Source of the DNA: Mytilus trossulus
Lineage: Eukaryota
DNA length: 64,000 bases
Assembly (NCBI RefSeq): GCF_036588685.1
Contig: NC_086379.1
Span: forward strand, 48,484,001-48,548,000
Reading direction: 5' to 3'
Part shown: one piece after another, positions 1,348 through 48,400 of the stretch
Layout of the letters: each line of letters begins with the position of its first letter
How positions within the stretch are numbered: position 1 is the first letter of the stretch
Notes under the pieces: generated by a model
What the model was told of the DNA's origin: nothing
What the model saw: the letters and a program-made list of their open reading frames with translations, nothing else
Databases searched by the model: none
Program-made: the position numbers and the translations under genes

Positions 1348-4300
1348 CTGAAACAGGAGTCCTTTTTCTAATATTCATTCAATTGCTAAATGATTTCCTA
1401 ACCCTTTAAAACTAGTGAACTGAACTAGTTAGCAATAGCTACTGTGGTACAGTTTGTAAAGCAATTTGAAAACTGTAAAATAACTCTGACGTTGAAGGAT
1501 TTAGCATGATTTACTTCGCCAAATTTGTTAGATACAAAAGTAGTTTACTAATAATAAATCGAGTCTTTAAAATCTTTTTGTAACAAGCACATAATATAAA
1601 TCAGGGTTATAATTATTCTCTGGGTAATTGAAATGATCTGAAAAAACAAAAAGGGAGTTTGAACTGGATGCGTCACGAGGATTTAAATTTCAATATATTT
1701 ATCTTAATGCTAAGATTTCGTGAAATGCTATTGAGTGGTTCCAGAGGAGTTGAGATGACAAGAATGGGGACTGACAAACGGACGGATTCAAAATCATTTT
1801 AACCTACGAAATTTGTATACTAGTCAACAAAAGAAACGATACACGACTTTGAAATACAATTTATCAAAAAGTATTAAATATAAATCAAAATGAGATATAG
1901 TGCATTATTTTGAAAAGCTTTCATTTGCAATGTATGCACATATGATAGTGAATATCAAAACCTGTCGAAAAGTAACTAAATCCCGTTTAAACGATCAAAG
2001 GATGGAGAATATATTTCCATGGTCTTTAAGTATAACTACCTTCAATATTGGTCCTATAAACGGAAGACCTCATCTTTAATTTGAAACAAAAGTCTTGTGG
2101 CGTTTCTTTTGTTGACTAGTATATAAACAGAAAACAGGTGATAAACTAATGAAGTATTTACAGATATCTCGAATCTGATAAAAAAATATACTTGCCTTTT
2201 AGTGCATCTATAATTTGTCTTTCTTGTATTGTATTTGCTTGCTGGCTTTCATCAAATAATTGTCCATGTGCATGAGTAAGCAAATCAGTAACAAGTGCAA
2301 TGTCAAGTAATGAATTCATCTCAAGAGATTCAACGTATAACTGCAAAGACATCAGAAACGAAAAAAGGTGAGAGGATTTTTCAACTTGTTTCTATAGTTT
2401 TAAGAGTGCATTTCTATCTAACTAAAGATTTGTAAACGTTGTGTGTCGTTTGTTATAGTTTGTAAAACGTTACAAATGAAGAAACAAACGCATCGTTCAC
2501 TGACCTTGTTTGAACTGTCAAAAATGTAAACAAACTTATTACGCGGGAAAATACCTTCTGTAGAAGATGTTCTAAACACACAAGACTTCTGTGTCTGCTG
2601 TTGTGTTTTTTTTTATTTTGGTCGGGTTGTTGCCTCTTTGACACATTCCCCATTTCCATTCTCAATTTTATTCTGTGCATATTCAGTTTTTACGTCCTCA
2701 TCAGATGAATGTAAAAAAGCAGCACCGAAAGGAGATACCTAAAAAACCTAAATTTAAGAAATTATTGACATTGCTATGAGTTATGCGAATCAGGAGTGTA
2801 TCTCTTTTTCTTTTGTCAGTATCAACCTTTTGTAAGTGGGAAACATATGAATAATTACATAATTGATTCAATGTTTAAGTTAGAAAGAAATACAGCATTT
2901 GTACTAACAACAGACGGACGACAAACTGTAAAAGCATTTTTAGCGAGTGCATAGTGTGTCAAAGCTTGTGCAATCTTTGTAAATTTATGTTAGAATCAAA
3001 TGATCTATAGTCGCCGTCAGCTGAAATTCGTAGCGGTTATCAATTGAAATAATCTAAACTATCAACCACGTTCACTCGAGATATAGTTTTTCACATTCCA
3101 TTCATAAATCGCAAAAAGAAAAACCACTACTGACCTACCTTTTAAGTGATTGCACTGTGATAATCCTGACCTTCACATTTTCCAAGACTATTTTCAATGG
3201 TGGAATCCGCCATTGTTTTTTCCGGAAGTGTTCCCCTGGAGTTCAATTTCATAACATTTGCATAAAGAGATGTATTTATAAAGGTTACTCGGGAACACGT
3301 GTATTTGTTTACTTTTAACACGTGTGTTTAAATCAAAACATGTTTATGTTTAATTTGATTGGACCATCAGTAAGTTATTACCGGTTTAAGTTATATCAAT
3401 CATGATAACTTCATGCTAGAATTTTAGCGCTAAAATTATAATAAGATATCTAGAATTGTCATTCGAGGTTCGCCTATCCGACAGAAAGGTTCGTTTTTTC
3501 TTAAATCGCCACTTGGTAAAATGTCCGAATCTTCTCCACGTCTGGAATTGAATGAAGACATACTACTCGAAGGAGATAATAGTTTACCGCCACCTAATAT
3601 TCATAAAGCAGCTGATAAGTCGTCTGATTTGGTAGATACTGTAGAGCTTTTTAAGACAATTTTAGACAGCAAGTTAGGTGAGTTGAAATCTGAACTCATA
3701 CAAGAACAAGATTGCCTTAAGAGAAAAATTAAGGAGGACGTCACTCTAAAATTTAAGGGGGAAGGAAACAGAATTCAGTACACCTTTAACGAGGAATTAT
3801 TAGACACTGTTAATAAACTTTCAAAATTCATCCCTAACTCCAATACTCAAGCCTATAGATTAGTTCTTGACATAACTGATAAGATCAAAAGCCGTAATAA
3901 GAAAATACGCATAGCTGATGCTTCCCCTACTGGTTGGGGAACCGTTAGGGAATACGAATCCAATGCCGTGGCTTCAGATTCTGAAGATGAGAGAAAGATA
4001 CGACAAGCTGAGACCAGAGCTATCCGTACCTCCAAGGAGAAGTCAAAATCTCGCCAGCAACCTTACCCTAAAAATCCGCCTCGTCAACAACCTGCGGAAT
4101 CTTATGGTAACCCTGCTTACGCTCAGCATTATCAACGTAATCAGCAACAGCCCTTTCGTGGGAGCTTCGCAAGGCGTGAGCCTTGCTCAATCGACACGTG
4201 CCACTACTGCAAGCAACAAGGCCACTGGAGAAAAAACTGTCCTCTTCTCGCCAGTCTCAGGTCATCCAACAGCAACTCCACAACCTACCAGAAGTAGTAA

Positions 4301-7300
4301 AGTAGGGCCTGAACGTCACTCTCCAGTCATTGTGAATGATAAGTATTTAGACACTATTAATGACCAATTTTCTACATGTTTTGTTGATAACGATTATATA
4401 GAATCTTTTTTAGATCAAGTTCAATATTTTGAAAATTGTCAGTCATATGATAAATTTAAAGGGGTGAAAGGTAGATTAGCTTGTCATGTAAAGTATTGGG
4501 AAAATATAGGTGCTTGTCCTTTTGTGCTTGATACAATAAAAAATGGTTATGTTATTCCATTTATAGATACACCTTTTAAAATGTACCACAGAAATAATAG
4601 ATCAGCACGGCAGAATACTGAATTTGTCACAAAGTCAATTGAAGATTTAGTTCAAATAGGTTGCGTAATTAAAGTGCCTTTTCAACCATATGTGGTAAAT
4701 CCATTGAGTGTTGCTACTCAAAAGTCCGGTAAGAAACGACTTATTTTAGATATGAGTCAATTGAATAAACACATAAAGCGCGAAAAAATAAAATTTGAGG
4801 ATTGGAAGTTAGCTATACAATATTTTGACAAAGATATGTATCTGTTTAAGTTTGATTTAAAATCTGGTTATTTTCACTTAGACATATGCTCACAGCAACA
4901 GACTTTCTTAGGTTTTCAGTGGGAAGGTCAATTTTATTGCTATACTGTTTTAGCTTTCGGAATTACTACCGGTCCGTACATTTTTACTAAATGTTTGAGG
5001 CCACTAGTAAAATTTTGGCGTGGAAACGGTATAAAAGTTGTTTTGTATTTAGATGATGGATTTGGCATGAGTCCAGATGAAAATACATGTAATGAGCAAT
5101 CGTCCTTCGTAAAAAGGTCTTTGATTGATGCTGGTTTCCTTATTAACGAGGAGAAGTCTGTTTTTAAACCTGTTACCGAGTTAGAATGGTTGGGAATAGT
5201 TTGGAACTCGAAAGAATACAAATTATCTATTACTCAACGTCGAGTTGACGATTTGATTTTCTCATTGAATGTCATTTTGGCTAAATTTCCCTATGTTACA
5301 GCTAGATATTTAGCTCAGGTTGTAGGTAGAATTATTTCTATGACTCCCGTAATCGGAAATGTGGCTAGAATTATGTCAAAGTTCTGTTACATGGAAATTG
5401 AAAGTAGAATTGGGTGGGATATTCCCATTACAGGGTACAAACCCGTCGAGGTTTTATCAGAGTTAAAGTTCTGGTTAGAAAATGTCACCATGATTAACTA
5501 TCGTAATTTATGTCATTACAGTAAATCTTCTGTTGTCATATACTCAGATGCTAGTAATATTGCCGCTGGTGCATACACCGTTGAATTAGAAAATAAGATT
5601 TTCCATAAGATGTGGACATGTAGTGAAACGGTACAAAGCTCCACATGGAGAGAGCTGAAAGCTATAGAGTTGGCCCTTTTTTCTTTTAAGAATAGTTTCA
5701 CAGGAAAAACTATAAAGTGGTTTACTGACAATCAAAATTGTGTCAAAATTGTTAATTCGGGAAGTATGAAAGAAAATCTTCATGTTATAGCAAAATCTAT
5801 TTTTTCATTTTGCATTCAAAAAGGAATATCAATTGACATTCAATGGATTCCCAGAAAAGAAAATGAAAAGGCTGATTATATCAGCAAAATGGTTGATTTC
5901 GAGGACTGGGGAGTCACACATATATTTTTCAATTTTTTAAATGATATGTGGGGTCCTTATTCGATTGACAGGTTTGCAAGTGTCGAAAATAGAAAAGTTA
6001 TGAGATTTAACTCCTTATTTTGGCAACCTGATTCTGAAGCAGTTGATGCATTTTCTCAAGTTTGGACCAATGAAAATAATTGGCTAGTTCCACCAATTAA
6101 TCTTGTGATACGATCGATTAAACACATTATAGCTTGTAAAGCTCGAGGCACGTTAGTTGTGCCTAAGTGGATTTCTGCTGCATTCTGGCCTTTGATATTC
6201 GATAAACATCTGATTTATCAAGATTACGTAAAAGATGTTATTGTGTTTAAAAATACTGATGGTATTTATAAGCAAGGTTCGAATAAGAATACGATATTCG
6301 GAATTGAACCGTTTGGTTCGCAAGTTTTGGCTGTTTTGCTAGATGCATCTTAGACATGGCCCTAATATATATAGATATATTTTAGCAGGCATGGTCTGTT
6401 TGTGACATGGCCCTAATATATATATATATATATTGTAGCAGGCATGGTCTGTTTGTGACATGGCCCTAGTATATGTATATTGTAGCAGGCATGGGTGTTT
6501 ATGTTGACATGGCCCTAGTATCGGTAATGATATTGTAGCAGGCTTGGTTTTTTATTTGACATGGCCCTAGTATCTATAATGATATTTTAGCAGGCATGGT
6601 AATTTGTTTTTACAGTTTATGGCCCTAGTATCTATAAAGATATTGTAGCTGGCGTTGAAATATTTGAATATATATTATATTTTACTGTGTATAGAAATCT
6701 GAAATATGCTAATAATTCGTCCTCTGTATATGTATATAAAATGTTATTGCAATTTTACGTTTTTCAGATATTTTTTCAGTAGGACATTGGTCAGACTTTA
6801 ATTCACAAGTTGCCTCTAATAATGATCTCAGCAGTTTGTTCAAACAGTTACCAGAATTCCTTCTTTCGTCCAAGGCTGCGAGTACTCAGAAGAAATATAG
6901 ATATGCCTTCAATTCATGGTGTAAGTGGACTAGTCAATATTCTTTTTCACCATTGCCAGCATCTCATTTACATATTTCTTTATATTTAATTCATTTGTCT
7001 GAAACTGCAAAATCGGTTTCAAAATTAAATGATGCTTTTTACGCCATAAAATGGGCACATAAATTAGCTGGCGTTGCTGATCCCAGTGAAAATAATCTAG
7101 TTGCATCTGTTCTTGAAGGGGCTCATAGAAAAATAGGTCATTCAGTTGTCAAAAAAGAACCTATCACACCACATATTTTGAAAAATATTGTATGTAAATA
7201 TGCTAATAATACTTGTAATTTAAAAGATGTAAGAATAGCATGTATGTGTTTATTAGCCTATGCTGGCTTTTTACGATTCTCCGAGTTAGCTAACTTGAGA

Positions 7301-10300
7301 AGGTCTGATATACAGTTTTCCCCTACTTACCTTACACTTCATTTAGTCAAGAGTAAAACTGATGTATATAGGGAAGGGAAAGATGTTGTCATTTCAAAAA
7401 CAGGGAATATTACATGCCCGGTAGATGTACTTCAGCGTTATCTAAAGTTAGCTAACATTCCTGAAGAATCGAATGATTTTATTTTTAGATCTATTTGTTA
7501 TTGTAAATCTTTGAATATATACAAACTTAGAAAGAGTAGTCATATTTCTTACACCAGAGCCAGAGAGTTATTGTTATCTGCACTTGACAGTTTAGGTCTT
7601 GATAAAAAACAGTTTGGCTTACATAGTTTGAGGTCAGGAGGAGCTACTGCCGCGGCAGAAGCTGGAATAGATGACCGGTTGTTTAAGAAACACGGGAGAT
7701 GGAAAAGTGATAAAGCCAAAGATGGTTATGTTAAAGAGAGTATACTCAACAGATTGTCAGTATCTAAGAATTTAGGCTTGTAATATATATTGTTTGTCCC
7801 CCCTTTTTCTTTATGTCCCTTTCTTTATCAATCGAAGCTTTCTGTGCTGTCGGGGCGAGCTGATAACCAAAAACTGTGTTGAGTTTTTACTTTGTAAATG
7901 CTTTATGTTCGTTTGAAGTATTGAATAAGAACATAAATGTATTTATAAAGGTTACTCGGGAACACGTGTATTTGTTTACTTTTAACACGTGTGTTTAAAT
8001 CAAAACATGTTTATGTTTAATTTGATTGGACCATCAGTAAGTTATTACCGGTTTAAGTTATATCAATCATGATAACTTCATGCTAGAATTTTAGCGCTAA
8101 AATTATAATAAGATATCTAGAATTGTCATTCGAGGTTCGCCTATCCGACAGAAAGGTTCGTTTCCCACCCACCCACCCTTTTTATTAAGACTTCATAGGA
8201 ATGTGAATCAGTATGTTATGTAGAAAATAGTTGATAAAATACATGTATGTAAATCGAAATGATTTTTTCTTCAACTTATAGAACATTTTTCTATTGTAGA
8301 TTGTGTTTATATGTGATGGCAGCGGTCGATGACAGCAAATTGGACATTTGTTTATTGTTTATAATAAAAAATAAGCTTTCTGTGCTGTCGGGGCGAGCTG
8401 ATAACCAAAAACTGTGTTGAGTTTTTACTTTGTAAATGCTTTATGTTCGTTTGAAGTATTGAATAAGAACATAACGGGAAACCGTATCACATCAATGAAA
8501 AGAACATTTCAGGAAACTGCGTAAATGACGAATTTCACATGTAAACAAATGATCCTCATAGAAACGAAGATGGCGGAATTACAATGGAAAACATTCTGGA
8601 AAATGTGAAGGTCAGGATTATTACAGTGCGATCACTTAAAAGGTAGGTCAGTAGTGGTTTTTCTTTTTGCGATTTATGAATGGATTGAGAAAAACTATAT
8701 CTCGAGAGAACGCGGTTGATAGTTTAGATTATTTTTACCGATAACCGCTACGAATTTTAGCTGACGGCGACTATAAACGTATTGTTGATGGACCGTTTGC
8801 ATAGTCTGTGTTAGAAGGTAAAGCACTTTAAATTTGTCATTTTATGGTCTTTTATAGCTTGCTTTATGGGGTATTGTTTTCATTTGCAAACGGTGACCTA
8901 TAGTTTAAACAGAGCTTCTAGTTTAATCTGCTTTTACCATCATTAAAATGGGAGAAGTGGACGGATACTTCTAACAAAAAAGGAGATGGTTGGCAATAGT
9001 AAAAGGTTAAACATTTTGTGCAGGTCTTCGACAAATCATTTGACATGCAAATGATTAATTTCAAACAGTTGGCTAACAGGACGTAAATAGTTTGTCGTAC
9101 TATCAGGGCCTTTCCGAAATGAGTGGGTTCTTGTCATTGTCCTCTTATTCTCTGTTCTCTACTTAAGACTGTACAATAAATATTGTAAATGTTTCTTTTG
9201 GAATTCCATATTTTTGCCGTATTTCATGTTGATTTGTCTTATTTTAAGAATTTCGTTAATCTGGTTCGATATGCATAGACGATAATTTGATGTATGTTGT
9301 AGTAAAACAAATGGTAAAAATAAATGTCTGAGGAAGAAATATTATCGTTGATAGTGTATATGATTGGAACCAATAGTCGAGCAAGTCTTTCATCAAAGAG
9401 CGCCGGGTACACTACTTTTGTTGGTGAGGTTCAAATTGGTCAGTATTTACTTTTACTTCAATTTTATTAGTTGTGCTTAGACTTTTCGTTATTCCCATTT
9501 TAAAGATATGTTGTGAATTTTCTTCATATTCCAGCTTGTTATAAATATCAATATACCTCCAAAAGTCTTAGGCAAATGTGTATTAGGCGAGGCAAATCTG
9601 CGTCGATTAACATTACACTTTCTGTTTTTCGTTGTGTTTCCTTTATCCAATGTACATATCTTCTTTCTCTTTTATTAATTGGTGGATTTTCTAGGGCGTT
9701 TAACAGAGCCTTTGTGTCCAATCCATTTACCATAAGAAATGAACTCACTGAAAAGGAAAATCTTTGTACTTTTTATTTAAAAATTATAAAATAACATTAT
9801 TATACTAACTTACAAATTTATAATGAAACTGAAGTAATTGAAAAGATAGGTTCCTTAAATTATCAATATTAGGGCCTGTATGCATAAAGCTACTTAAGTT
9901 AAGATGTTCCTTAGTAAACACTTAAGTTAAGGAAACTCCGCCCTTTTTATCAAAGTGGTATGCATAAAAAATCTAAAACTGAGTATTCTTAAGTAAAATC
10001 TTAGTTGTTTTAAGTCACGCCCACAAAACTTAAGTGGTATACATAAGACTCCTTATGCTAAGGAAACCCCTAAGATAACACTTAAGTCTAAGGTACCTAT
10101 AGAGCTTCCTTAAGTTTTCAAAAAGAGTTAAAAATCAATCGAAAGTATGCGTATTTTGCAAAACATAAATAGGTTACCTACAATTGAATTGATTAATACC
10201 TATATCAGTTATTAAATACTATTTATTCGTTTATTTATTGCTAAATATTAAAGATCGTCGTAATGTTCTTAAAATCACGTATAATCAACATCAAGAGATA

Positions 10301-13300
10301 CCAGTGGGTAGTTGTATACTTTTTCCCATATCTCGTGTGTATACCGAAAAATACTCAGTTTTTATACTCATGTAATTCATGGATCTATTTTTCTTTTGTT
10401 AACTCTGTCCGAGCACGTTTTCTAAATTTTTAAAATACACCGCTCGGGTATCATTTGTACCCGTAAGTTAAAACAGAATTAAGGAATGAAGAGAGGGCAT
10501 GCAAAACCAAATTTCTATAGCATGTGTGTGAGGTTTTTTTGTGTTTTTTTGTTTTTTGTTGTTTTGTTGTTGTTGTTTTTTTTGTGGGGGGGGGGGGGGG
10601 GGGTCATTTAAATTTGAATTTAGTTTTATTTTAAAGATGTAGAGCATACCCTAATTTTTTTCACGTACAGGGACAAAATCGAAATGTTTTTAAGATGGAT
10701 TTATTTCATAAAGGGTGATGGTGGACATAGACCTCCATTTTGTTGAAACAATAAGTTGATTGTTTATGGAATCACTGTTACGGCAGTCAGAAGTCCCCAC
10801 TGCTTCACCCCATGAAATTCGAAATTTTTTTTTTTTTATATATGATATATATTACGGTTTCGAAAATATTGCTAAGTACATTAAGATGTTGAGAATAAAC
10901 TTTCTGTAATAATTTGTTTTAGTAAAGATTGTAGGTTTTTTTCACAAATGCCCTAGTTTGTATATGGATTCCTGGGGGGGGGGGGGAAACTACCCTCCCC
11001 CCTTTTGTTTTCTAAAAGGGAAGTGAAAAAAATGTTAATTTCACATCAAAATAGATTTTTTTTATCAAACCATAAGCATACGTAATCAAGGGGTCTGGAA
11101 AGAGAGATGTAAGCGCATAATAAGCTGAAATATTAGTAAACATTTTATTGAAAAAAAGGATTTTGTAAAATGATTTGTTTTGTGAAAATATGTGCTTACA
11201 ATGCTACCCTTAGTCTTGTGCTATGCCATTGAAACCTTGATCATGTTTTGTTAGAGTTTAAAACATACTGTTGTATCCAGATTCATTAAAAGATAATTAA
11301 AGATTAAGTAGAGGATATTCTTGGATCACCGAAATATTTTTTTTCCAATGCTCATCCGTCAAAACATCAACCTTAAAAAGCGTTGTCTTATATGCACCAA
11401 TTGTTCCTCATTATACTATGTTACGTTCTATTGAACTGTTTTACATACCAATATCAATGTAACCCCAGCTCTTTAAAATAAAAGCATGCATTGATCAATA
11501 AATTTAAATAATCATAACAAACTTTAACACGGATGAGTACATGTGATGAGCTAGTATATATAATACGGTAATTAGAGAAAGGTTAAAATTTAAGTATTCC
11601 TTAGTTCAGTGAAGACTTAAGTAAGTTTATGCATACCGCTTAAGAATTTTACTTAACTAAGGAAATTCTTAGTGAAATTTAAGTTTAAGGAATACTTAAG
11701 TTAAGACGTTTTATGCATACGGCCCCAGATGTATAAGATATTTCGTTATACTTATTCAACTTGAAGAGAAACAAGTAAAACCATCGCTTCATTAATGAGC
11801 GTAAATGTAGACAATTTTAAGATGAAAGAAAAGTCGCGTTCCCAAAATCTTTTTTCTATATTGGGAAAATATTAAAAACAACAAGAATACTTAATTCAAA
11901 ATAATTTTACATTAATGTTCATATACTAGTATCTCACTGACCAAAGTTGAATCTAAAACCAATCAAATGCAATCAACCTTATAAGAACATTGTTGATAAA
12001 GATAAAAATACATTACGAAAATTGGAATAAGGAGTGTGTTTAAACAATGATTGACCAAATGAACATTAAATGTTTACTTCCTATATCAGTATCCGTTTAT
12101 GTCCACACACGTTAACATCTACAATGTATGTGAAAAAATCATAACAATACTGAACTCCGAGGAAAATTCAAAAAGGAAAGTCTCTAATCAAATGGTAAAA
12201 TCAAAAGCTTAAACACATCAAAGACTTCAAAGGAATGGATAACAACTGTCATATTCCTAACTTTGTACAGACATTGTCTTATGTAGAAAAGGGTGGATTT
12301 AACCTGGTTTACATTTCCTGTGTGAAAATAGCCATATTCGTGTATGGTAAAATCTTCTTAAACGAGCTGAAACCTCAATTTCTTAAAACATTTGAACGCC
12401 AAGATATAATTAAACAAGGAAAAATTCATAATACGCTGTTCTTTCATACATAGTGCTTAATAATTAGGAAAACACCACTGCTATGTACCTGTTCTATCAC
12501 TAAATACACGTTCAACATCCTGTATGGCTTTGAGAAGAATATCTTGTACAGGGTCTTGTTGTCTTTTGGTGGAACAAATTGGAACTAAGTAAAATAAAAT
12601 AAAACATTATCTTATGGTAGTATGATCATTAATGTAACACTAGTACCTTATATGTACATGCTGATGTCGTCGATAAAAAAAAAACAATGTGCACATACAT
12701 ACTTTAAAAATAATTGCAACTTTTTTTTAATTTGTTTCAATAAATTACACATTAAATTTTGCAATAGTTTCATAAATGCTTTAAGCCCTCAATGATACAA
12801 ATTCAGAATCGTTTAGGTTATAAAAATGATAGCCATTAACGTTTAAGTGTTCTGAGAACATTGTGGCTTATCCTATGTTCCCCTAAAACTTAAATTGTTG
12901 GCAAGTTTCTTTATTGATATTTGGAAATTCGCGAGGCTCCTCCTATGTTTTATTGTGTAACGTGTGTTATGCAAGTTTGTGATAGAAGTTGTTTTCACGA
13001 AGGCCTGTATGCACGATTGTACCTAATACTTTAATTTGATCATCCATGCGTTTCTTTTCATTTTTTAGAATACACAATGTTTGGCATACAAAGTTACTAG
13101 TTATCAAATCCACAATAATGAAAATAAACTCATCATAGATACCTGGATTGAAATTCGGTGTTTGCGCCAGACACGCGTTATGTCTATAAAAGATTCATTG
13201 GTGACGCTCGAATCCAAAAGAGTTAAATGGGCCAAAATAACGTATGAAGTTGAACAGCACCAGGGACCAAACATTCCTAAAGGTTTTGCCAATTAAAGCT

Positions 13301-16300
13301 AAATTTATCTATTCCCAAAGTTTTGTTATTAGTTAATTTATACTTATGACCATATAACTGATAAATTATACCAACACAGACGTGCTGACTACTAGGTTGG
13401 TAAGCAGCTTAAGTGATGGTTTGTTTAAATTACATGTGCATAGATGACAAATATTTTGATAGAAAAATAAGATAAATATAAGATAGAGCTTAGATTCCGT
13501 TGTATTATAGTACAGTTTTATTATACCATTACAATATTTATTTTTGGGCACAATCAAATTATACCGTTTGTAGGTGTTGATGAATATTCTAACAGTTCTT
13601 TTTCGTGTTTTATGACAACTGACAGCTTAGAAACATCTAGGTTTGCCATTAAGCTTTGCAAATGTTGAACAGCAGAAAATCCGTCGTCTGCCCTATTCGT
13701 TCCTGGTGAGGCAGTTAGACCTAAAATCTAAAATGTAAGTGTAAATACTTGTTGTCAAAATGAAACCAAATGGAAAAAAATAGTTCTGGAATACTTTCCT
13801 TGTGTAATTATCTATCTTATGTTCATCATATGGATGTAATGCATGTAAGTCAACATTGTAAGACTAATTAAGCAATCGTTACTAGGCATGATAGCTAAAT
13901 GATAACCCTTGACAATTGAAAGTGGAAAGTCTAGAGTTGATATATTCAAGTAAATGATCACCTCAAAAGTACCAATCTTATAGTGATCTTCTAGGCACAT
14001 CCAATAGCTTTGCTGGCATTGCTCCCAATAAAAATAACAACACACTTATGACATTAGTATACAAGATTTTCTATCTTTGTAACATGAGTAGTGTTTGTTG
14101 ATTGCATTGTTGTTGGGTTTTTTTGTAATAACATCTGGTGACAAACTATTCATACAGATTGACTGATTTGAATGGTTGGTAGTTAATTAACTGATTTTGC
14201 ATAATGTCCAATTTGATAAATTGATTGGCGATCTTCGAATGTGGAATCACCAAATGGGACTTATAACCGAGTGTTTTAAGTAACACGAAGGGTGCCACAT
14301 TTCCTAATCCTTCCAAGAGAATCTTATATAACCCCTATATTTGGTTTAAGTTAGTGTAAATCAGTATTTAGGGTTTTGTCTGTGTCGTGTTCTGATGGCT
14401 GTTTGTCTTTCGTCGTTTTCTTTATAGCGTTGTCAATGTGTTCTGCCTTTCCTTCAATAAACATGCGAAAAATGAAACACACATAAACGGATAATTATTT
14501 TCCTTATTTATATTTTTCAATATATAATAAAAAAATTGAGATATTGTTTTACCAGGAAGGTTGGGCAAAAAAGCATTGCGAAATTGTTCATAAATTTAAT
14601 TTCCTGTAAAGAAAAAATGATGTACTAGTATCAAAAAGAACAAAATACTTCATTACTATCTTAATTTGTCTTAACTTAATACAAATTCTTTGAAATAGCA
14701 TACCTATACAAGTTTAAATAACATTCGGTCGTCCCTCCGAAAAAATGTCATCAAGTGACTTAGCGTAATTCGATGATTAGTTTTAGAAACAAAAACAAGC
14801 TACGTACTATACTAACGATAAATAAATTCCTATTTCAAACTTCGTTTGAACTTTTACAAATGAATTCATGATGGACAAGAAAAAACATTTTTGTAACTCA
14901 ATACCTTCTTTGCATTTTACTCTTTTCCTTAAATCCAGATTTTAACTTATTATTTTAAAACAACTGGCAATTGCTGTTTGATAAGGTAACTCTAAATGCA
15001 TTGAATGTTGGTCAATAGTTTTTTAACATTCACCACTGTAATAGTACTACCGTTAATATTAGTTTAAATTGGACAATTATAATTTAACAAACCTGTGGGA
15101 TTTTCCCGGACTTCGTTTCAAACTTGTGTCTTCTGTAGTAATTCATGATATGATTGAAAGCATTTCGTCGCACAACATGGTGACATTCGTCCAGAATAAT
15201 CAGCGTCAGAAGATCCATCGAGATTGTATTTTCCGACTTTTCGTCCAGGTGATTATAAAGTGATTGTGGAGTACAGAAGAATAAAGATACACGTTGTATT
15301 ATGGTTGGAAAGGAGTCACATTCGCCCTCTAAACTTGCGTCCCATTTATAAATCTTTCCCTAAAATGTTAAATATGTTACAATATTAAATAATTACATTA
15401 CATGTATGTTTCACTATAATACGTTATTCTGATTGGGTAACTGTACATCACGTGTTATTCCTTAAACAATTGTATTATTCAATAAAAATTTGCATTCATG
15501 ATAAAATGATGTCCCATAAAAAAGTGCACAGGTGAATAAAATAACAGAATTTCTGAAATTCGTGTTTTCACGATTTTAGATAAAAAAAAAATGAATGATT
15601 CTTTTTGTAACTTCATAGGGTTGTAAAAGCGTTGACCGGCGCACATTTTTAGAATAAGCGCTTCTGCGCTTCATACAAAATGTACTTCGGTCAACTCTTT
15701 TACACCCTAAGTTACAAAAAAAAGCATTCAATTCTTAAATAAAAAATATTACTGCATTACACAAATCTTATTTTCTTAAATAAAAAATATTACTGCATTA
15801 CACAAATCTTATTTCTCATTATCAAAATATCGTCACATGAATTAATTCTCGTAATCAAAAATGTCTTCACATGAGTTATTTCTCATTATCAAAATATTGT
15901 CGCATAACTCATTTCTCATTATCAAAATATCGTCGCATAACATATTTCTCATTATCAAAATATCGTCAAATGGCTTATTTTGATTCTCAAAATATGGTCA
16001 CATGACCTTTTTTTAATTGATGCATTAGTATATTCTATACAAATAATCAATCAGAAAAGAAACTCTATGTGTATTGGTATTTTCTTTAAATGGAAATTTC
16101 TACAATGCATGCAATTCAAATGTTGCAATTATTAATATCTTCAATTGCCTATACCTGGAAATGTAGGTCTGTAAAAGTCCTGCATGCTCTGCTGTATTGC
16201 TGTTCTAACAGAACATTTGTCTTATTTATGAAAACGACTTTACCTACAATAGGAAAAATCATCCAGTATGTTAAAGTTTCACAACATGAACAAAATGATA

Positions 16301-19300
16301 ATAAATTTGAGTTTCACAACAACATGAACAAAATGATAATAATTTGAGTTTCACAACAACATGAACAAAATGATAATAATTTAAATGTCACAACAACATG
16401 AAAACAAGAGGCTGTCACAACGAAAGCAAACTGGATTTATTAATATTTATTTGTGTCCTGCCAATATCCCAAGAACCATAACTGATGAACGGTAAAAGTG
16501 AAAATCGTGACATCCATTTTGTCATCAGTATCAACATATTAAAATTTGAAAAGCTTAGGTTGAATGGTTCATGAGTAAATACAACAACATGAATGGAAAC
16601 GCCATTTTTCGATCTTTCAACAACCATAACTCCTGAACGGTAAAAGTCAAAATCGACATTATTGAACTTGACCTCCATTTTCTCATCAGTAACGACATAT
16701 ACAAATTTGAAAAACTTTGGTTGAACAGTTCATGAGTAAATGCACGGACATGATTGGAAAAGCCATTTTTCAATCTTTCAAGAACCATAACTGATGAACG
16801 GTGAAAGTCAAAATCGTCATTATTGAACTTGACCTCCATTTCGTCATCAGTAACAACATATACAAATTTGGGAAGCTTTGGTTGTGCAGTTCATGAGTAA
16901 ATGCACGGACACGACTGGAAAAGCCATTTTTCAATCTTTCAAGAACCATAACTGATGAACGGTAAAGTCAAAATCGTCATTATTGAACTTGACCTCCATT
17001 TTGTCATCAGTAACAACATATAAAAATTTGGGAAGCTTTGGTTGTACAGTTCATGAGTAAATGCACGGACACGACTGGAAAAGCCATTTTTCAATCTTTC
17101 GAGAACCAAAACTCCTCAACGGTAAAAGTCAAAATCGACAATATTTTAATCTTGACCTCCATTTTGTCATCAGTAACAACATATTAGAAATTGAAAAGCT
17201 TTGGTTGAACAGTTCATGAGTAAATGCACGGACACCACTGGAAAAGCCATTTTTTAATCTTTCAAGAACCATACATGTAACTCCTGAACGGTAAAAGTCA
17301 AAATCGTCATTATTGAACTTGACATTTTGTCACCAGTAACAACATATTTATATTTGGGAAGCTTTGGTTGAATGGTTCATGCGTAAATGCACGGACACGG
17401 CTGGAAAAGCCATTTTTTAATCTTTCAAGAACCATTACACTCCTGAACGGTAAAGTCAAAATCGTAATTTTTTAACTTGACCTTCATTTTGTTGTCTGTA
17501 ACAACTTATTGAAATTTGAAAAGCTTTGGTTGAATGGTTCATGAGTAAATGCACGGGCAACATTTGCTTGTCGCCCGCCCGCCCGCCATACATCCCTAAA
17601 TCAATAACCGACATTTGTCAAAAATCCGGTTAAAAATGATATTAATTGACATTTCAGCTATACTTCATCATATTAGTTCAGTTGTTTAACAATAGGAATG
17701 AGAAATTTATTGCATTAAGTTTAGAACTACATGTGTTGCGAATTAGTTTCTGTCAAGTTTAAAGATAATGTATCTTACCATTCGGGTATTTGATTAAATG
17801 GTCTTCAATTATATGATATGCAACATAAGTCTTTCCTGCATTGGTTCCAGCACAAATAATAGTGTTTTGACCTGACACAGCTATCTCAACAAGCTCTTCT
17901 TGATATTTTCGTAGTTCAATTAAACTTGGTTTCCTTTCTATAAGTTAAAGCAGAAAACAGTATAATTCTATTACTAATTGCAAAGCAATATTAACCGAAA
18001 AAAATCTACAAAATTCGAAGCAAGCTTTCATCATATCATTTTGTGATATTATATTTGTTGATGGGAGTTTTATATCATTGTCATGTTTGTTGGCATATAT
18101 CCCACATTCCCTCAGCTAGTGATAATATGGAAGTCAATTGTAAGAACATTTTAAGGACGCTATCACGAGTTATATACTCTGGAATGTCTGTGTAACACTG
18201 CTATGTTCTACTTTTCATAACCAAATTTCTATCCTCGATTCTTTAGAGATTACACCACTGAAATACATTCATTACCAAATGCATACTTTCTTTAGCAACA
18301 AGATCTGTTTGAATTCTTGGGTACAAGATCGACCCAGATTTTTGGGGGATTTGGGGTTGCTCATCTTTAGTTTTCTATATTAGATTTGTTGACTATTGTT
18401 AGTCGGCGTTTTTTGTTTTTACCATGCTGTTGTGATTCCGTCTCCAACTGCATAATGAGTTTGAATGTCCCTTTGGTGTATTCCACCCCTCTCCTGCAGA
18501 AGAAATTATGATAATTAGAATATGATACATGTACCCACCTGTGATTGATAGGACACAACAGCTTGTTTTACTCCCAAGTTTTAGTGTATATATGCCACTA
18601 TCTTCATTGGTAGATTCTAAAATGACAAGCTTGTAGACCTGGACATGTATACCATCGATTATATCACTTAAACATTCTTGTCTGCTTTTCTGGTCGTATA
18701 CAATTTCCTCATCATTCTTTAACCATTCTGCTATAAACTTTGACCCACCAACAATACATTGTAAGGTCACTGTATTGCCTTCAACACATGTTGTCTCCTG
18801 CAAAGGTTTGATGAAAACAACTGCAATGCAAAAAAAAAGTAGCAATTGATAAGCAGTCAAATCATTCGCAAAATAAGCAAAAATTATTTAAAATACAATT
18901 AAGATCCAGTATATTCAAACTCTAAAATTGCATCATTCTGTTGTATTTTTATAGAATGATTTAACTTTCTCTAATATATCTTGCTATATAATTTCTATGA
19001 AGGCAATGCACATTTATTGTAACAAATGTGAAACACTGAGGTGTCACTAATAAAGCTAGAACTGATCGAATTTCTGAGGAGAAGAGGTCAGCCTGTGGTT
19101 TCTTGTGGGGTTTTCGTTGATCAATATTAGTTTAATGTATTGTGGCGGATCTTTAATTTGCTTTCTTTGTCAAGCTTTTTTTTATAACTATTTTAACTAG
19201 AGGTATTTTCTAGAGAGAAAAACACAGTATTATCTTCTATTCACGTGGAAAACTTAAATAAAATAAAATGATAACGTTAGTGTGTCCGACTTAAATTACT

Positions 19301-39431: not shown

Positions 39432-42400
39432 AGTATCTCAATTGTTTGTAAAACAATTGAAAGGTCTTTCCTGTAAAAGTGATGTTTTCGTTATGTACTT
39501 TGTACGACCTTTCGTTTGATATACGACAAGCATACCTTTTCAAACTTTTCGCTTTTAACACTTAATGACCTCATCCGCCTACAGTTTTGAGATCGGAAGT
39601 ATGATATATGTAATACAGAGTAGATGAGCTTTCATTTGATATGCGACAACGCCATTTTCTAGAAAGTTTGATTTTTGCACTTAATAACCCTATCCAACTA
39701 ATTTTTTGAGGTCGGGAATTTGATATTTTAAATGTACACATCATGACCTTTCATTTGATATACAACAACCCTATCTTTAAAGAAAATTTATATTTTGCAC
39801 TCAATGACCCCATCCAACCCATTTTTGGGAGACGTCAATTTGAAATTTGATATGTACGCTTTATGTTCTTTCATTTGATATGCGACAACCTTACCATCTG
39901 AGAAATTTGAATGTTTGCACTAAATGAACCCACCCTGCCCACTGGGATGAAAAGGGGGTTCAAAATTTTCATTTTTAGGTAGAGTTTATTTAGACCTTCA
40001 ATTTGATATATCAGATGACCCCATTTGACAAAGTACAAATAATGATGCAATATCAACTATATAAATAGAAGTTATGAAACTTACAAAGTCAATGCAAAAC
40101 TTGAAAATTTCAAAATGATTTTTTGGTGTATTTTTCCATGGAATGTTTTTGGTATTTGGTCAAACATATAACTATGTCAACCTCTTCAATTTCTTAAACA
40201 TTTTAAGTGGTAAGCTCTTGTTGATTCAGAAATACATGCCTCCGCTCGCAAAACTTTAAACTGCAGTATCTCTATAACGACAATAGATATCTCAAATCTG
40301 TTAAATGATAAATGATCTACAGTTGAAGGACAACATTATAGAAAAAGAATTGGGACAATTTCAAACTTCACCAAGGTCACAATTAATCATCAAATATATG
40401 ATGCAATACCAAACTTGAGAACCGGAAGTCATAGAGACATGGGACTATCACCATTCAACTCAGGACCACTTGACCTTTCAGAGATCACAATGTCAAGGTC
40501 ATAGTATAATGTGAAGGTCAAGGTGAAATTGCATCATGACGTAACATTGACCTCAAATTGAAGGTCTTGAATTACTGATCATCTTTGCAGTATATAGTAG
40601 GTTGATATCTGTTACCTTAAAAAAGATATACACAAAATACTAGATTTTTAAGAATCATCCCGTTGTAACTTTTGAACAGACAGTCGGACATTTTTCGTTT
40701 AATAATATAAAATGTAGAGCTCGTCGAGAGGAACATTTTATACGCTGTATGTATGCAGCAAAGTCTTATCGTTTTCCTAATATGTAAGCTTGAAATTGCA
40801 GCGTAATTTTTTTTTGCACTCAGTGACCTTTGACCTTGGGTGCATATTCAAGGTCACATGAATTACAGATTATTGGTGCAGGTCCCAAGTCTCTACGACT
40901 TCCGGTTCTGAAAATAAAAAAAATTCTAAAACTGTTCACAATTTTTCAAGGGGAATAACTCCTTATAAGGGTTAATAACAAAATGATTGTATATGTTCAA
41001 TAACATTGCCATCTGTTCTTGTACATGTTACCGTTTTCAAATCGATTCTGTCTTGAATACTTTTTGCTAAAAATGTAAAAGAAAGAAATTGCTTCAAGGG
41101 GACATAACTCTCATAAGGGATGATGAAATCCTTAGCAGCCTCATATGGTAACATATCATGATAAGATCTAGCTATTGTCCAAATAAGGTCATGATATCTT
41201 TTAAAACATTTAAGGGGGGCCATGTTGAAAAAAATCAATAAAAGGGAGATAACTTCTAAAGGGGATGATGAAATCCTACAAAAGTTCATCTTGTAAAAGT
41301 TCATGATGAGGTCTATCGATGGTCCATATTTGGTCTTGATAACTTCAACAGAAAGGGGAGGAGGCCTTGTCAAACAAATGTTGGAAGAAAAAAAAGAAAA
41401 AGACTAGTATCTCAATTGTTTGTAAAACAATTGAAAGGTCTTTCCTGTAAAAGTGATGTTTTCGTAATGTTCTTTGTACGACCTTTCGTTCGATATACGA
41501 CAAGCATACCTTCTGTAACTTTTCGCTTTTTACACTTAATGACCTCATCCGCCTACATTTTTTAGATCGGAAGTATGATATATGTAACACAGGGTAGATG
41601 AGCTTTCATTTGATATGCGACAACGCCATGTTTTAAAAAGTTTGATTGTTGCACTTAATAACCTCATCCAACCAATTTTTGGAGGTTGGGAATTTGATAT
41701 TTCAAATGTATACATCATGACCTTTCATTTGATATACAACAACCCTATCGTAAAAGAAAATTTATTTTTTGCACTCAATGACCCCATCCAACCAATTTTT
41801 GGGGGACGTCAATTTGAAATTTGAAATGTACGCTTTATGTTCTTTCATTTGATATGCGACAACCTTACCATTTGAGAAATTTGAATGTTTGCACTAAATG
41901 ACCCCACCCTTCCCCCTGGGATGAAAAGGGGGGTTAAAATTTTCATTTTTTAAGTAGAGTTTATTAAGACCTTCAATTTGATATATCAGATGACCCCATT
42001 TGACAAAGTGCAAATAATGATGCAATATCAACTATATAAATAGAAGTTATGAAACTTACAAAGTCAATGCAAAACATGAAAATTTCAAATTGATTTTTTG
42101 GTGTTTTTTTCCATGGAATGTTTTTGGTATTTGGTCAAACACATAACTATGTCCACCTCTTCAATTTCTAAAACATTTTTCGTGGTAAGCTCTTGATGAT
42201 TCAGAAATACATGCCTCCGCTCGCAAAACTTCAAACTGCATTATCTCTAAAACGACAATAGATATCTCAAATCTGTTAAATGATAAATGATCTACAGTTG
42301 AAGGACAACATTATAGAAAAAGAATGTGGACAATTTCAAAGTTCACCAAGGTCACAATTAATCATCAAATATATGATGCAATACAAAACTTGAGAACCGG

Positions 42401-45400
42401 AAGTCGTAGAGACATGGGACTATCACCATTCAACTCAAGACCACTTGACCTTTCAAATGTCACAAGGTCAAGGTCATAGTATAATGTGAAGGTCAAGGTG
42501 AAATTTCATCATGACCTGACATTGACCTCAAATTGAAGGTCTTGAACTACTGATCATCTTTGCTGTTTATAGTAGGTTGATATCTGTTACCTTTAAAAAG
42601 ATATACACACAATACTATACTTTTAAGAATCATCCCGTCGTAACTTTTGAACAGACAGTCGGAATCTTTTGAGCTCAGTGTATAAAATGTAGAGCTCGTC
42701 GAGAGGAACATTTTATACACTGTAAGTATGCAGCAAACTCTTATCGTTTTCTTAATATGCAAGCTTGAAATTGCAGCGTAATTTTTTTTTGCACTTGGTG
42801 ACCTTTGACCTTGGGTGCAAATTAAAGGTCACATGAACTTAAGGTTATTGGTGTAGGTCCCAAGTCTTTACGACTTCCGGTTCTCGAGATACAATTTTTC
42901 AAAAATTGTGTATATTTTTTCAAGGGAAATATCTCCTTATAAGGGTTAACAACTAAATGATTGTATATGTTTATTATCATTGCCATTTGGTCTTGTACAT
43001 GTTGCCGTTTTCAAATCGAATCTATCTTGAATACTTTTTGATAAAAATGTAAAAGAAAGAAATTGCTTCAAGGGGACGTAACTCTCATAGGGAATGATGA
43101 AATCCTTAGCAGCCTCATATGGTAACACATCATGATGAGATCTAACTTTTGTCCAAATAAGGTCATGATATCTTTTAAAACATTTAAGGGGGGCCATGTT
43201 GAAAAAAATCAATAAAAGGGAGATAACTTCTAAAGGGGATGATGAAATCCTACAAAAGTTCATCTGGTAAAAGTTCATGATGAGGTCTATCAATGATCCA
43301 TATTTGGTATTGATAACTTCAACAGAAAGGGGATGAGGCCTTGTCAAACAAATGTTGGAAGAAAAAAAATAAAAAACTAGTATCTCAATTGTTTGTAAAA
43401 CAATTGAAAGGTCTTTCCTGTAAAAGTGATGTTTTCGTTATGTTCTTTGTACGACCTTTCGTTTGATATACGACAAGCATACCTTCTGAAACTTTTCGCT
43501 TTTTACACTTAATGACCTCATCCGCCTTCATTTTTGAGATCGGAAGTATGATATATGAAACACATAGTAGATGAGCTTTCATTTGATATGCGACAACGCC
43601 AAGTTCTAAAACGTTTAAATTTTGCACTTAATAACCCCATCCAACCAATTTTCGGAGGTTGGGAATTTGATATTTCAAATGTACACATCATGACCTTTCA
43701 TTTGATATACAACAACCCTATTGTAAAAGAAATTATTTTTTTTGCACTCAATGACCCCATCCAACTAAATTTTGGGGGACGTCAATTTGAAATTTGAATT
43801 GTACGCTTTGTGTTCTTTCATTTGATATGCGACAACCTTACCATCTGAGAAATTTGAATTTTTGCACTAAATGACCCCATCCTTCCACCTGGGATGAAAA
43901 AGAGGTTTAAAATTTTCATTTTTAAGTAGAGTTTATTGAGACCTTCAATTTGATATATCAGATGACCCCATTTGACAAAGTGCAAAAAATGATGCAATAT
44001 CAACTATATAAATAGAAGTTATGAAACTCACAAAGTCAATGCAAAACATGAAAATTTCAAATTTATTTTTGGGTGTTTTTTTCCATGGAATGTTTTTGGT
44101 ATTTGGTTAAACATATAACTATGTCAATCTCTTCAATTTCTTAAACATTTTAAGTGGATAGCTGTTGTTGTTTCAGAAATACTTGCCGCCGCTCGAAAAA
44201 TTTCAAACTGCATTATCTCTAAAACGACAATAGATATCTCAAATCTGTTAAATGGTAAATGATCTGCAGTTAAAGGACAACACTATAGAAAAAGAAATGG
44301 GACAATTTCAAAGTTCACCAAGGTCACAATTAATCATCAAATATATGATGCAATACCGAACTTAAGAACCGGAAGCCGTGGAGACATGGGACTACCACCA
44401 TTCAACTCAGGACCACTTGACCTTTCAAATATCACAAGGTCAAGGTCATAGTATACTGTGAAGGTCAAGGTGAAATTTCATCATGACCTGACATTGACCT
44501 CAAATTGAAGGTCTTGAATTACTGATCATCTTTTCAGTTTATAGTAGGTTGATATCTGTTACCTTTAAAAAGATATACACAAAATACTATACTTTTATTA
44601 ATCATCCCGTTGTAACTTTTGAACAGACGGTCGGACATTTTTGGGCTTATTATATAAAATGTAGAGTTCGTCGAGAGGAACATTTTATACGCTGTATGTA
44701 GGCAGCAAAGTCTTATCGTTTTCCTAATATGTAAGCTTGAAATTGCAGCGTAATTTTTTTTTGCACTCGGTGAACTTTGACCTTGAGTGCATATTAAAGG
44801 TCATATGAATTTAAGATTATTGGTGAAGGTTCAAAGTCTCTATGACTTCCGGTTCTCGAAATAAAATTTTTGAATTATTTTTTTTAATTTTTAAAGGGAA
44901 ATAACTCCTTATAAGGGTTAGTAACAAATTAATTGTTTATGTTTATAAACATTGCCTTCTGTTCTAATACATGCTGTCATTTTCAATTAAATTCTATCTC
45001 TGATACTTTTTGAAAAAAATGCAAATAAAAGAAATTGCTTCAAGGGGATATAACTCTCAAAGTAGATGATGAAATCCTATGCAGCCTCATATGGTAATAC
45101 ATCATTGTGAGATCTACCTATTGTCCAAATAAAGTCATGATATCTTTAAACACATTTTGGGGGGACCATGTTGAAAAAAATTAATAAAAGGGAGATAACT
45201 TCTTAAGGGGCAGGTGAAATCCTACAAAAGTTCATCTGGTAAAAGTTCATGTTGAGGTCTATCGATGGTTCAATTTTGGGATTGATAACTCCAATAGAAG
45301 CGGTAGGAGGGCGTGCCAAAAAAATGCTGGAAGAAAAAAAAGAAAAAAAAACATTAGAAAAACAATAAGGTCTTTCCCATGTAGGGGAAAGACCTTAACT

Positions 45401-48400
45401 AGTATCTCAATTGTTTGTAAAACAATTGAAAGGTCTTTCCTGTAAAAGTGATGTTTTCGTATTGTAATTTGTACGACCTTTCGTTTGATATAAGACAGCA
45501 TACCTTCTGAAACTTTTCGCTTTTTACACTTAATGACCTCATCCGCCTACATTTTTGAGATCGGAATTACGATACATGGAACAGAGTAGATGAGCTTTCT
45601 TTTGATATGCGACAACACCATGTTCTAAAAAGTTTGATTTTTGCACTTAATAACCCTATCCAACTAATTTTTGGAGGTCGGGAATTTGATATATCAAATG
45701 TACACATCATGACCTTTCATTTGATATACAACAACCCTACCTTAAAAGAAAATTTATTTTTTGCACTCAATGACCCCATCCAATCAATTTTTTGGAGACG
45801 TCAATTTGAAATTTGAAATGTACGCTTTATGTTCTTTCATTTGATATGCAACAACCTTACCATCTGAGAAATTTGAATGTTTGCACTAAATGACCCCACC
45901 CGTCCCCCTGGGATGAAAAGGAGGTTTAAAATTTTCATTTTTAAGTAGAGTTTATTGAGACCTTCAATTTGATATATCAGATGACCCCATTTGACAAAGT
46001 GCAAATAATGATGCAATATCAACTATATAAATAGAAGTTATGAAACTTACAAAGTCAATGCAAAACTTGAAAATTTCAAATTGATTTTTTGGTGTTTTTT
46101 TCCATGGAATGTTTTTGGTATTTGGTCAAACATATAACTATGTCAACCTCTTCAATTTCTAAGACATTTTAAGTGGTAAACTCTTGATGATTCAGAAATA
46201 CATGCCTCCGCTCGCAAAACTTCAAACTGCTTTATCTCTAAAAGGACTATAGATATTTCAAATATGTTAAATGATAAACGATATACAGTTGAACAACAAC
46301 ATTATAGAAAAAGAATTGGGACAATTTCAAAGTTCATAAAGGTCACAATTTATCATCAAATATATGATGCAATACTAAACTTAAGAACCGGAAGTCGTAG
46401 AAACATGGGACTAGCACCATTCAACTCAGGACCACTTAACCTTTCAACTATCACAAGGTCAAGGTCATAGTATACTGTGAAGGTCAAGGTGAAATTTCAT
46501 CATGACCTGACATTGACCTCAAATTGAAGGTCTCGAACTACTGATCATCTTTGCAGTTTATAGTAGGTTGATATCTGTTACCTTTAAAAAGATATTCACA
46601 CAATACTATACTTTTAAGAATCATCCCGTTGTAACTTTTGAACAGACGGTCGGACATTTTTGGGCTTTTTGTATAAAATGTAGAGCTTGTCGAGAAGAAC
46701 ATTTCATACGCTGTATGTATGCAGCAAAGTCTTATCGTTTTCCTAATATGTAAGCTTGAAATTGCAGCGTAATTTTTGTTTGCACTCGGTGACCTTTGAC
46801 CTTGGGTGCATATTAAAGGTCATATGAATTTAAGATTATTGGTGAAGGTTACAAGTCTCTATGACTTCCGGTTCTCGAATATAAATTTTTGAAAATATAT
46901 TTTTAATTTCTAAAGGGAAATAACTCCTTATAAGGGTTAATAACAAATAAATTGTTTATGTTTATAAACATTGCCATCTGTTCTAATACATGCTGTCATT
47001 TTCAATTAAATTCTATCTCTAATACTTTTTGAAAAAAATGCAAATAAAAGAAATTGATTCAAGGGGATATAACTCTCAAAGTAGATGATGAAATCCTATG
47101 CAGCCTCATATGGTAATACATTATGATGAGATCTACCTTTTGTCCAAATAAAGTCGTGATATCTTTTAACACATTTTGGGGGGACCATGTTGAAAAAAAT
47201 CAACAAAAGGGAGATAACTTCTTAAGGGGAAGGTGAAATCCTACAAAAGTTCATCTGGTAAAAGTTCATGTTGAGGTCTATTGATGGTTTAATTTTGGTA
47301 TTGATAACTCCAATAGAAGCGGTAGGAGGGCGAGCCAAACAAATGCTGGAAGAAAAAAAAGAAAAAAAAACATTAGAAAAACAATAAGGTCTTTCCTCAC
47401 GGAGAGGAAAGACCTTAAAAACATGCGAAAAACAATAAGGTCTTTCCTCGCGGAGAGGAAAGACCTTAATAATTCCCCGTGGAATACTTTTGCTCTATTA
47501 CTAGTACGTCTTGCGGTAGATAGACGGTTTCAGCCCATACGAATGGTGGGAGCTAAGCACTGTGTCACCAACGTATGTGGCTAAAACATAATCAGCAAAA
47601 GCTTATATTTTCTTCTCTTTTGGCATATCTTGTATAAAATATTCAGCAAAGCAATAAGTTTTCTTCTCTCTCTGTAAATGGACTGTCTACTACATTTCAA
47701 GTCATTTCTCTCCAGATGCTCATCTTCATGCTGAAATATCTCCGATCATATGATACTTTTTTTAGCCAAACATATTATAAGAATAAATATTAATCTTTAA
47801 TATTTATGATAGATATGTGTATAGGTAAATTGGCGCAAATGAGTTCCGATTATTGGTGCAAATGATACATTTGGAGAACAAAATTTTGGCGCAACTAATA
47901 CCCCTGAAAAAACAGTAGTTGGCGACAAAGGACTGATGCCGATAACCGTATGTTCCAAACGGAAGGGAACCCGCATAACAGATTACGTATAATAATCTAC
48001 CGAGGTTTGCCGAGTGACAAAATTGACTCAGTTTCCCGACTTAATTTTCGATCATTAGTTTAACCTTGATTACTTGTGTTGTTTTAATTACGAGTACATT
48101 GTACATTCCGTTAATTTGCTTGTCTTGTTAATATCTATTATACATGCTGGATTATTAGCCTTTCAAAGTTAACAACCGGTTTGCACATTTATAAAAGAAC
48201 TTTGTTTGCATTTACCTTAAATATTGCCATTTCGTCAATCAATTTAAAATGTATCAAACCAGTTTTCGTCAGATTCCGACAAGACGCTTGTAGCTAATGA
48301 CCTGAAGTCATAAAACTTTCGAGTCAGTATTAGTACTCATACTCAAAACTCAACCAATCAAAATGCTGGATTTCATGTTTCAAGCACTGATCAAAGTTTT

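Follow-up and report, generated by a model that had tools for sequence, protein, structure and literature searches.

An intact PAT-like retrotransposon

The window analyzed here is a stretch of 64,000 nucleotides from Mytilus trossulus (contig NC_086379.1), and positions 3270–8474 of it are occupied by an intact, young PAT-like tyrosine-recombinase retrotransposon, encoded on the + strand. The element is framed by split direct repeats in the order A1-B1-A2-B2. A1 (227 nt, 3270–3496) forms the left end and is 100% identical to A2 (7937–8163); B1 (102 nt, 7835–7936) is 100% identical to B2 (8373–8474), which forms the right end. The gag ORF (3521–4297, 258 aa) encodes one CCHC zinc knuckle at approximately 4196–4243 (Pfam zf-CCHC, E 1.8e-4, passing the cut-off), and its 3' end is overlapped by the pol ORF (3918–6353, 811 aa), which features reverse transcriptase (RT), RNase H, and an MT-like domain at approximately 5907–6158. 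The tyrosine recombinase (YR) follows in a frame of 347 aa from stop to stop (6740–7783; Pfam Phage_integrase, E 4.5e-13). Within pol, RVT_1 is matched at E 3.8e-16, and the RT_RNaseH and Dam matches both fall under their cut-offs; the Dam match (E 0.0046) lies where an MT domain is expected, after RNase H, and PF05869 in 5/48 homologues of this region is weak but consistent with such a domain.

These features are those of PAT-like elements: split direct repeats whose inner pair lies behind YR, RT/RNase H and YR on the same strand, a Gag zinc finger, and, weakly but consistently, an MT domain after RNase H, which sets PAT apart from Ngaro. An identity as Ngaro is disfavored by this last domain, which Ngaro elements lack. 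The element fits the echinoderm-form Pat1-like layout of the order DIRS, in which A1-B1-A2-B2 repeats place B1/A2 behind YR, and it shares with that form the gag zinc knuckle, RT/RH/MT, and a same-direction YR (PMC4157794). The PAT-like descriptions in the available portions of that source mention neither a hairpin array nor an intron in the MT–YR gap, whereas the window element has both; in the nematode-form Pat1 and Kangaroo, this gap contains the internal repeats, in contrast to the unrelated array found here.

The YR protein is identical to proteins named Mytilus californianus, and many near-identical models bear that name; we call the element multi-copy on the names of protein models alone. 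Pol is 96–98% identical between proteins named for different Mytilus species (P0125, P0154, P0173, and P0180), and the element is near-identical in sequencing runs from several organisms, including run X18. Horizontal spread or recent shared activity are possible sources of this cross-species near-identity. In addition, gene models P0003 and P0110 fuse element exons with host-like exons, including a fibrinogen domain in P0003, and copies of the element may thus splice into adjacent genes.

A GT-AG intron and a candidate AT-AC intron span the pol–YR gap

The first methionine of the YR frame is residue 167, and its coding part starts at an acceptor, 6759 or 6768. A GT-AG intron at 4729–6767 (+ strand) joins 270 codons of pol to YR, yielding a protein of 608 aa, and is represented by one contig and 16 model proteins. 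The contig comes from run X17, presumed to be RNA, and joins 4728 to 6768 with at least 255 letters on either side; together with the model proteins, it supports the intron that the original prediction, made from the sequence of the window, had placed around the array. The joint is absent from the contigs of the other three of the four runs examined (24 listed), and the array is covered by contigs in all four. Depth in X17 is 14.6 on the spliced contig and 0–7 inside the intron, a measure that cannot rank gene parts. A second X17 joint, from 7830 to 3500, was rejected as a circle because the A1/A2 repeat yields it in the assembly graph. The GT donor at 4729 is kept in 12/29 relatives and was dismissed as a conserved site: GGT makes up 41% of Gly codons, which is the same proportion.

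We further identify a candidate for a second, rare intron of the U2-type AT-AC form at 4339–6758 (+ strand), based on RefSeq models and conservation. It starts with ATAAGT and ends with TTTTAC, joining 140 pol-frame codons to YR in a protein of 481 aa; the AT donor is in U2 consensus, as compared with the U12 donor consensus, the AC follows a pyrimidine tract, and the two sides are in frame. The junction occurs in 11 distinct RefSeq-named model proteins, with the frame open. It was found in no contig of the four runs examined, such contigs being prone to drop rare forms.

Conservation of the two splice sites covers part of the clade. Among the 23 relatives with enough sequence, 11 from several clades carry ATRAGT in phase 1 near the gag stop, where the encoded residues vary (DKY, DEY, DKS, DKF, NKL), and the remaining 12 have no such donor within 330 nt. 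A phase-1 AC that ends a pyrimidine tract accompanies the donor in 8/10 AT-donor families, the exceptions being L006 and L074; some phase-1 AC is also found, under a loose rule, in 6/12 families without an AT donor, and L005 has a nearby AG that is out of phase. At the protein level, the acceptor was assessed in 33 of 115 ORF-called YR homologues, namely those with a placeable start motif. F-S-D is preceded by H, R, or Q in 29/33 (background 2%), and the next residue upstream has a codon able to end in A in 33/33 (background 56%), a pattern that matches the requirement of an AC acceptor.

U2-type AT-AC introns are exceedingly rare, with 24 among 608,562 U2-type introns in a five-genome survey, or about 0.003%, and those in SCN4A and SCN5A, for example, resemble 4339–6758 in having an AT donor within an otherwise U2 consensus, a polypyrimidine tract, and a terminal AC (PMC1557818, available portions). 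The surveyed AT-AC introns are all in host genes (same source), whereas the candidate at 4339–6758 is the likely route to a retrotransposon recombinase and is conserved in several clades. A conserved AT-AC intron would answer how a start-less recombinase is made and would provide a natural case of a rare splice type. The array lies inside both introns, and is thus on the unspliced RNA and off both spliced forms, ending approximately 100 nt upstream of the YR acceptors.

Six hairpin units between pol and YR

The array comprises six units at 6353–6659 on the + strand and begins on the final base of the pol stop codon (6351–6353). Units 1 (6353–6396), 2 (6404–6449), 4 (6506–6549), and 5 (6558–6601) are accompanied by unit 3 (6457–6496), which has a short inner stem and is predicted to be unfolded in context, and unit 6 (6616–6659), whose outer arms are degenerate; successive starts are 51, 53, 49, 52, and 58 nt apart. 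Coordinates and arm sequences bear out the proposal of six units that run from the pol stop and keep two conserved arms. The left-arm pattern has six matches in the window, all within the array, where 0.61 are expected, and 1/100 shuffles reached six.

Folding energy adds nothing to this picture. Single units fold at −7 to −11 kcal/mol with z = −1.44 to +0.91 relative to shuffles (+ strand), the entire array has z = +1.16 with a minimum free energy structure that pairs across units, and we dropped folding energy as support for structure because units fold no better than shuffles. Units 1–3 have as their inner stem an (AT)n run, self-pairing by construction, and the inner A-U pair of unit 3 would close a 2-nt loop. 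The compensatory change from A-U to C-G that had been offered as a sign of selection is present, but it represents one event copied into units 4–6 rather than repeated covariation.

No known structured RNA was recognized. Rfam returned 5 matches over 3000–9000, all far under the gathering score, and none of its transport elements of the CTE or MTE kind came near that score; a match to mir-1277 reached 23.8 bits against a gathering score of 81 and sits on an AT run. Neither the long stable hairpin of a miRNA precursor nor an Rfam catalytic core of a known ribozyme was found in the array units, and the suggested small-RNA source is unlikely given short, weak stems and no Rfam family at gathering score. 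Variation among other mussels is mixed: of 10 listed variants in the array (among 40 of 153 variants listed), three break an outer pair (6442, 6490, and 6622), and none falls within the first five pairs of the inner stem. Dimerization by kissing loops was set aside because apical loops vary within the array and are mostly non-palindromic across families.

Covariation in a relative at 61% YR identity

The comparison that the original prediction called for, an alignment of the pol–YR gap in relatives, proved informative. One relative, L001 (61% identity in YR and 58% in pol), carries the window's unit six times, plus a seventh degenerate copy, starting at the pol stop, and over the units of both the inner stem shows about four independent double changes, at inner positions 3, 4, 5, and 6. 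The unit has no other match outside the array in 362,857 nt. Arms are retained between the two families; linkers are not.

When 12 units from the window and L001 are tallied together, each of the first four inner pairs holds in 12/12. Inner positions 3–5 pair in 35/36 cells relative to 26.9 with permuted 3' halves, a figure that overstates the number of events, as units within an array are duplicates. Inner-stem cells include 14 G.U and no A.C. The CUA/UAG and GCC/GGC helices are almost invariant, with one C.A and one A.G mismatch in the 12 units, and these, like the inner helix, are kept as originally described. The outermost CAUG/CAUG helix did not hold up, with its U-A pair present in only 5/12 units. 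Predicted pair probability of the outer helices is below 0.4 in 9/12 units, and the near-invariance of the outer arms means that they yield no covariation signal. Overall, pairing of the inner stem is supported by covariation in these sequences, and the outer helices are invariant and marginal. The fixed features of the family are outer arms with two 2-nt 3' bulges, an inner stem that is merely paired, and a free apical loop.

The proposal that CATG palindromes, two in most units, serve as targets of a methyltransferase fares poorly. Four of the six window units do have two, but there is a single CATG in unit 4 and no CATG in unit 6, the paired CATGs are not retained in L001, and they are absent from the repeated motifs of other families.

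Repeated hairpins in distant families

Tandem repeats are found in TOC1 and kangaroo. In the available portions of the literature searched, which include PMC9210276, PMC7192593, PMC3266345, and PMC12477816, neither a hairpin array in the pol–YR gap nor a DIRS-order element with an AT-AC intron is described.

To place the array among more distant elements, YR was aligned for 53 sequences, drawing on 52 of 120 matches listed (roughly 100 YR homologues have 50–70% identity), and 90 loci were retrieved. Metagenome contigs supplied the best 80 of 295, viral contigs 1, and genome contigs 9. A pol end and YR were present in 70/90; removal of 4 with gaps under 50 nt and 24 duplicates left 42 gaps. Viral contigs contributed little. 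A single-protein scan gave 9 stretches, none confirmed; an alignment scan gave 1 distant locus; and the unit pattern gave 34 single matches and no arrays, which we take as chance.

A repeated hairpin (p ≤ 0.05 relative to 100 shuffles) was found in 28/42 pol–YR gaps, or 25/38 after merging near-identical families, and in 0/21 equal-length controls behind YR. In distant families (YR 33–50%), the unit is a short GC-rich hairpin of other sequence with a fixed loop of 3–6 nt, present in 2–10 copies. The test was not passed by 14/42 gaps, at least seven gaps have no repeat at all, and the test misses long units such as those of L001, L054, and L059. For 26 families, the gaps (8,640 nt) hold 93 motif copies and the other parts of these loci (98,698 nt) hold 4; as motifs were chosen inside gaps, only their near-absence outside is informative. 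Double changes between copies of one array are seen in seven families (L008, L029, L074, L076, L080, L084, and L089). Stem variants of the short-hairpin families comprise 10 G.U, 5 compensated, 4 other, and 3 A.C, and the excess of G.U over A.C (10 to 3), on a G+T-rich strand, leans weakly toward + strand RNA.

Position within the gap is flexible in these relatives, with the first copy 9–283 nt behind the pol stop, the last approximately 40–340 nt before the YR start, and no fixed spacing. Families of one assembly have different motifs (L014, L042, L050, and L076, prefix OFES01), and the loop ACTG recurs in separate clades of a quick YR tree, which is a single tree with 10/37 inner branches open and no named reference elements. 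The Gag zinc knuckle was detected by strict pattern in 12/18 long relative loci, and 3 of the 6 misses (L025, L028, and L029) have variant spacing. One clade (L010, L025, L026, L028, and L029) features a knuckle with six, not four, residues before the last cysteine. Nine relatives (L082–L090) are in assemblies titled as bacterial or archaeal MAGs and are probably animal host DNA binned with symbionts.

Judged by these comparisons of sequence, the array is real and is an RNA element under selection, known in its general kind and new in its setting. The original view that the RNA structure is selected, and is not a minisatellite in drift, is backed by relatives, though not by the window's own covariation.

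A putative packaging signal on unspliced RNA

We propose, at a probability of roughly 0.45, that the array is a family-specific signal on unspliced RNA, putatively read by Gag for packaging. The element would make a full-length RNA together with spliced RNAs that lack RT, RNase H, and MT, and splicing would supply an N-terminus to the start-less recombinase, through the GT-AG intron of one contig and the AT-AC intron suggested by models and conservation. Full-length RNA would be needed as pol message and template, spliced RNA would be needed for YR, and a signal tagging the unspliced form would be required because copying the spliced form would lose pol. The pol–YR gap would be the only non-coding stretch exclusive to full-length RNA, and the array in it would present a redundant, multivalent set of RNA stem-loops. 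We infer that an element-encoded reader, most likely Gag via its zinc knuckle, recognizes the array, and that Gag would select its own family's full-length RNA for particle assembly and reverse transcription. Of the functions offered in the original prediction, a signal confined to intron-retaining RNA appears to fit best.

Several results favor packaging: inner-stem covariation in the window and L001 (35/36 cells against 26.9), repeated hairpins in 28/42 gaps and 0/21 controls with motifs near-absent elsewhere in the loci, and a Gag knuckle in 12/18 long loci. Single assemblies that contain several families with different motifs point to an element-specific reader. Others count against it, as units fold no better than shuffles, outer helices have low pair probability, three of ten listed mussel variants break an outer pair, and 14/42 gaps fail the repeat test, at least seven of them without a repeat; the ACTG loop common to separate clades would also fit a host factor.

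The retroviral psi signal consists of several stem-loops within an intron and is read by the CCHC zinc knuckles of Gag/NC. Two hallmarks of a psi-like signal, presence on unspliced RNA only and a conserved stem-loop (here the covarying inner stem), are found in the array, and a third, Gag binding required for encapsidation, is predicted. The two share intron-confined stem-loops and a CCHC knuckle in Gag; they differ in that psi lies in the 5' leader with hairpins unlike each other, whereas the array consists of near-identical units behind pol and its reader is putative.

Host factors offer an alternative. MPMV CTE and IAP RTE are post-transcriptional transport elements, and an intron-specific position would equally suit a host-read export or stability element for intron-retaining RNA, of the CTE/RTE/MTE kind known from retroviruses and LTR retrotransposons, or protection from nonsense-mediated decay downstream of the pol stop, where the array begins in both the window and L001. 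Loops common to separate clades agree with this, and the MusD transport element, in which multiple stem-loops span about 400 nt beside the 3' LTR, is likewise structured RNA in the non-coding space of an intron-retaining retroelement RNA (PMC4588558, available portions). We consider such a function unlikely, as families in one assembly differ in motif, the first copy keeps no fixed distance behind the stop (9–283 nt), and the export elements described each form one large fold that has tertiary contacts and host readers, not an array of 10-nt hairpins whose motif changes between families. Control of splicing from within the intron seems slightly less likely again. The array could hold back part of the splicing at the YR acceptor, possibly through feedback by a protein of the element, and thereby set the ratio of genomic to YR message; it ends approximately 100 nt before the acceptors, and two splice forms exist in an element that must retain both RNA forms. 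However, the last copy in relatives ranges from about 40 to 340 nt before the YR start, the weak AT donor would limit splicing already, and arrays occur in families both with and without that donor.

Two further explanations dispense with a selected RNA. The absence of folding excess, the AT microsatellite loops, the stem-breaking variants in other mussels, and the families without an array would all be expected of a neutral minisatellite that occupies the element's only unconstrained space and is self-complementary merely through its (AT)n and (RY)n runs. This is improbable: arms and not linkers are kept between families at 58–61% protein identity, pairing exceeds the RY baseline, and the contrast of 28/42 gaps with 0/21 controls speaks against it. 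More improbable still are repeated DNA sites, whether interrupted palindromes or hairpins of single-stranded cDNA, for the recombinase or MT-like domain. The short motifs do resemble interrupted palindromes, and DIRS-1 replication passes through single-stranded cDNA (PMC7192593, available portions), but double changes between copies and 3'-only bulges are unexpected for double-stranded sites, the wobble pattern favors the + strand, the motifs hardly occur elsewhere in the element, the region behind YR included, and the CATG pairs are not retained.

Packaging by Gag can tentatively be extended to a broader model, possible in our estimate and with the odds against it: PAT-like elements of marine invertebrates would carry a tandem, family-specific RNA code in the pol–YR intron that changes with Gag, so that each packages its own unspliced RNA alone, and a weak U2-type AT-AC intron would ration the recombinase message. 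If true, the model would provide the order DIRS with its first packaging signal and would describe the first mobile element dependent on an AT-AC type II intron. The array would also explain why copying an abundant spliced form need not erase pol. Little is known about RNA handling by tyrosine-recombinase retrotransposons; for DIRS-1, the primer is not determined, and the string "packag" is absent from the available text of PMC7192593. The element is young, intact, and multi-copy, and its short, repeated, family-specific structure, at a fixed place, can be addressed directly in tests by binding, swap, or deletion.

Genomic surroundings

The retrotransposon is inserted within a small element with 194-nt inverted arms (91% identical) at 3006–3199 and 8582–8775, probably a MITE. 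On the − strand, exon-like frames of a DExH helicase with a DECH box flank the element at 15084–15359 and 1106–1378 (Pfam ResIII, E 2.4e-7; Helicase_C weak). These frames may belong to a RIG-I-like receptor, and the element would lie antisense in an intron of the helicase gene. Elsewhere in the window, tandem units of 161/157 nt occur at two places (16508–17556 and 58441–58913), a 120-nt unit forms five clusters within 39585–45898, and a 33-nt unit occupies 15808–16006. Finally, further pairs of inverted arms at 104–853, 1812–2127, and 9872–11726 are probably small DNA transposons.
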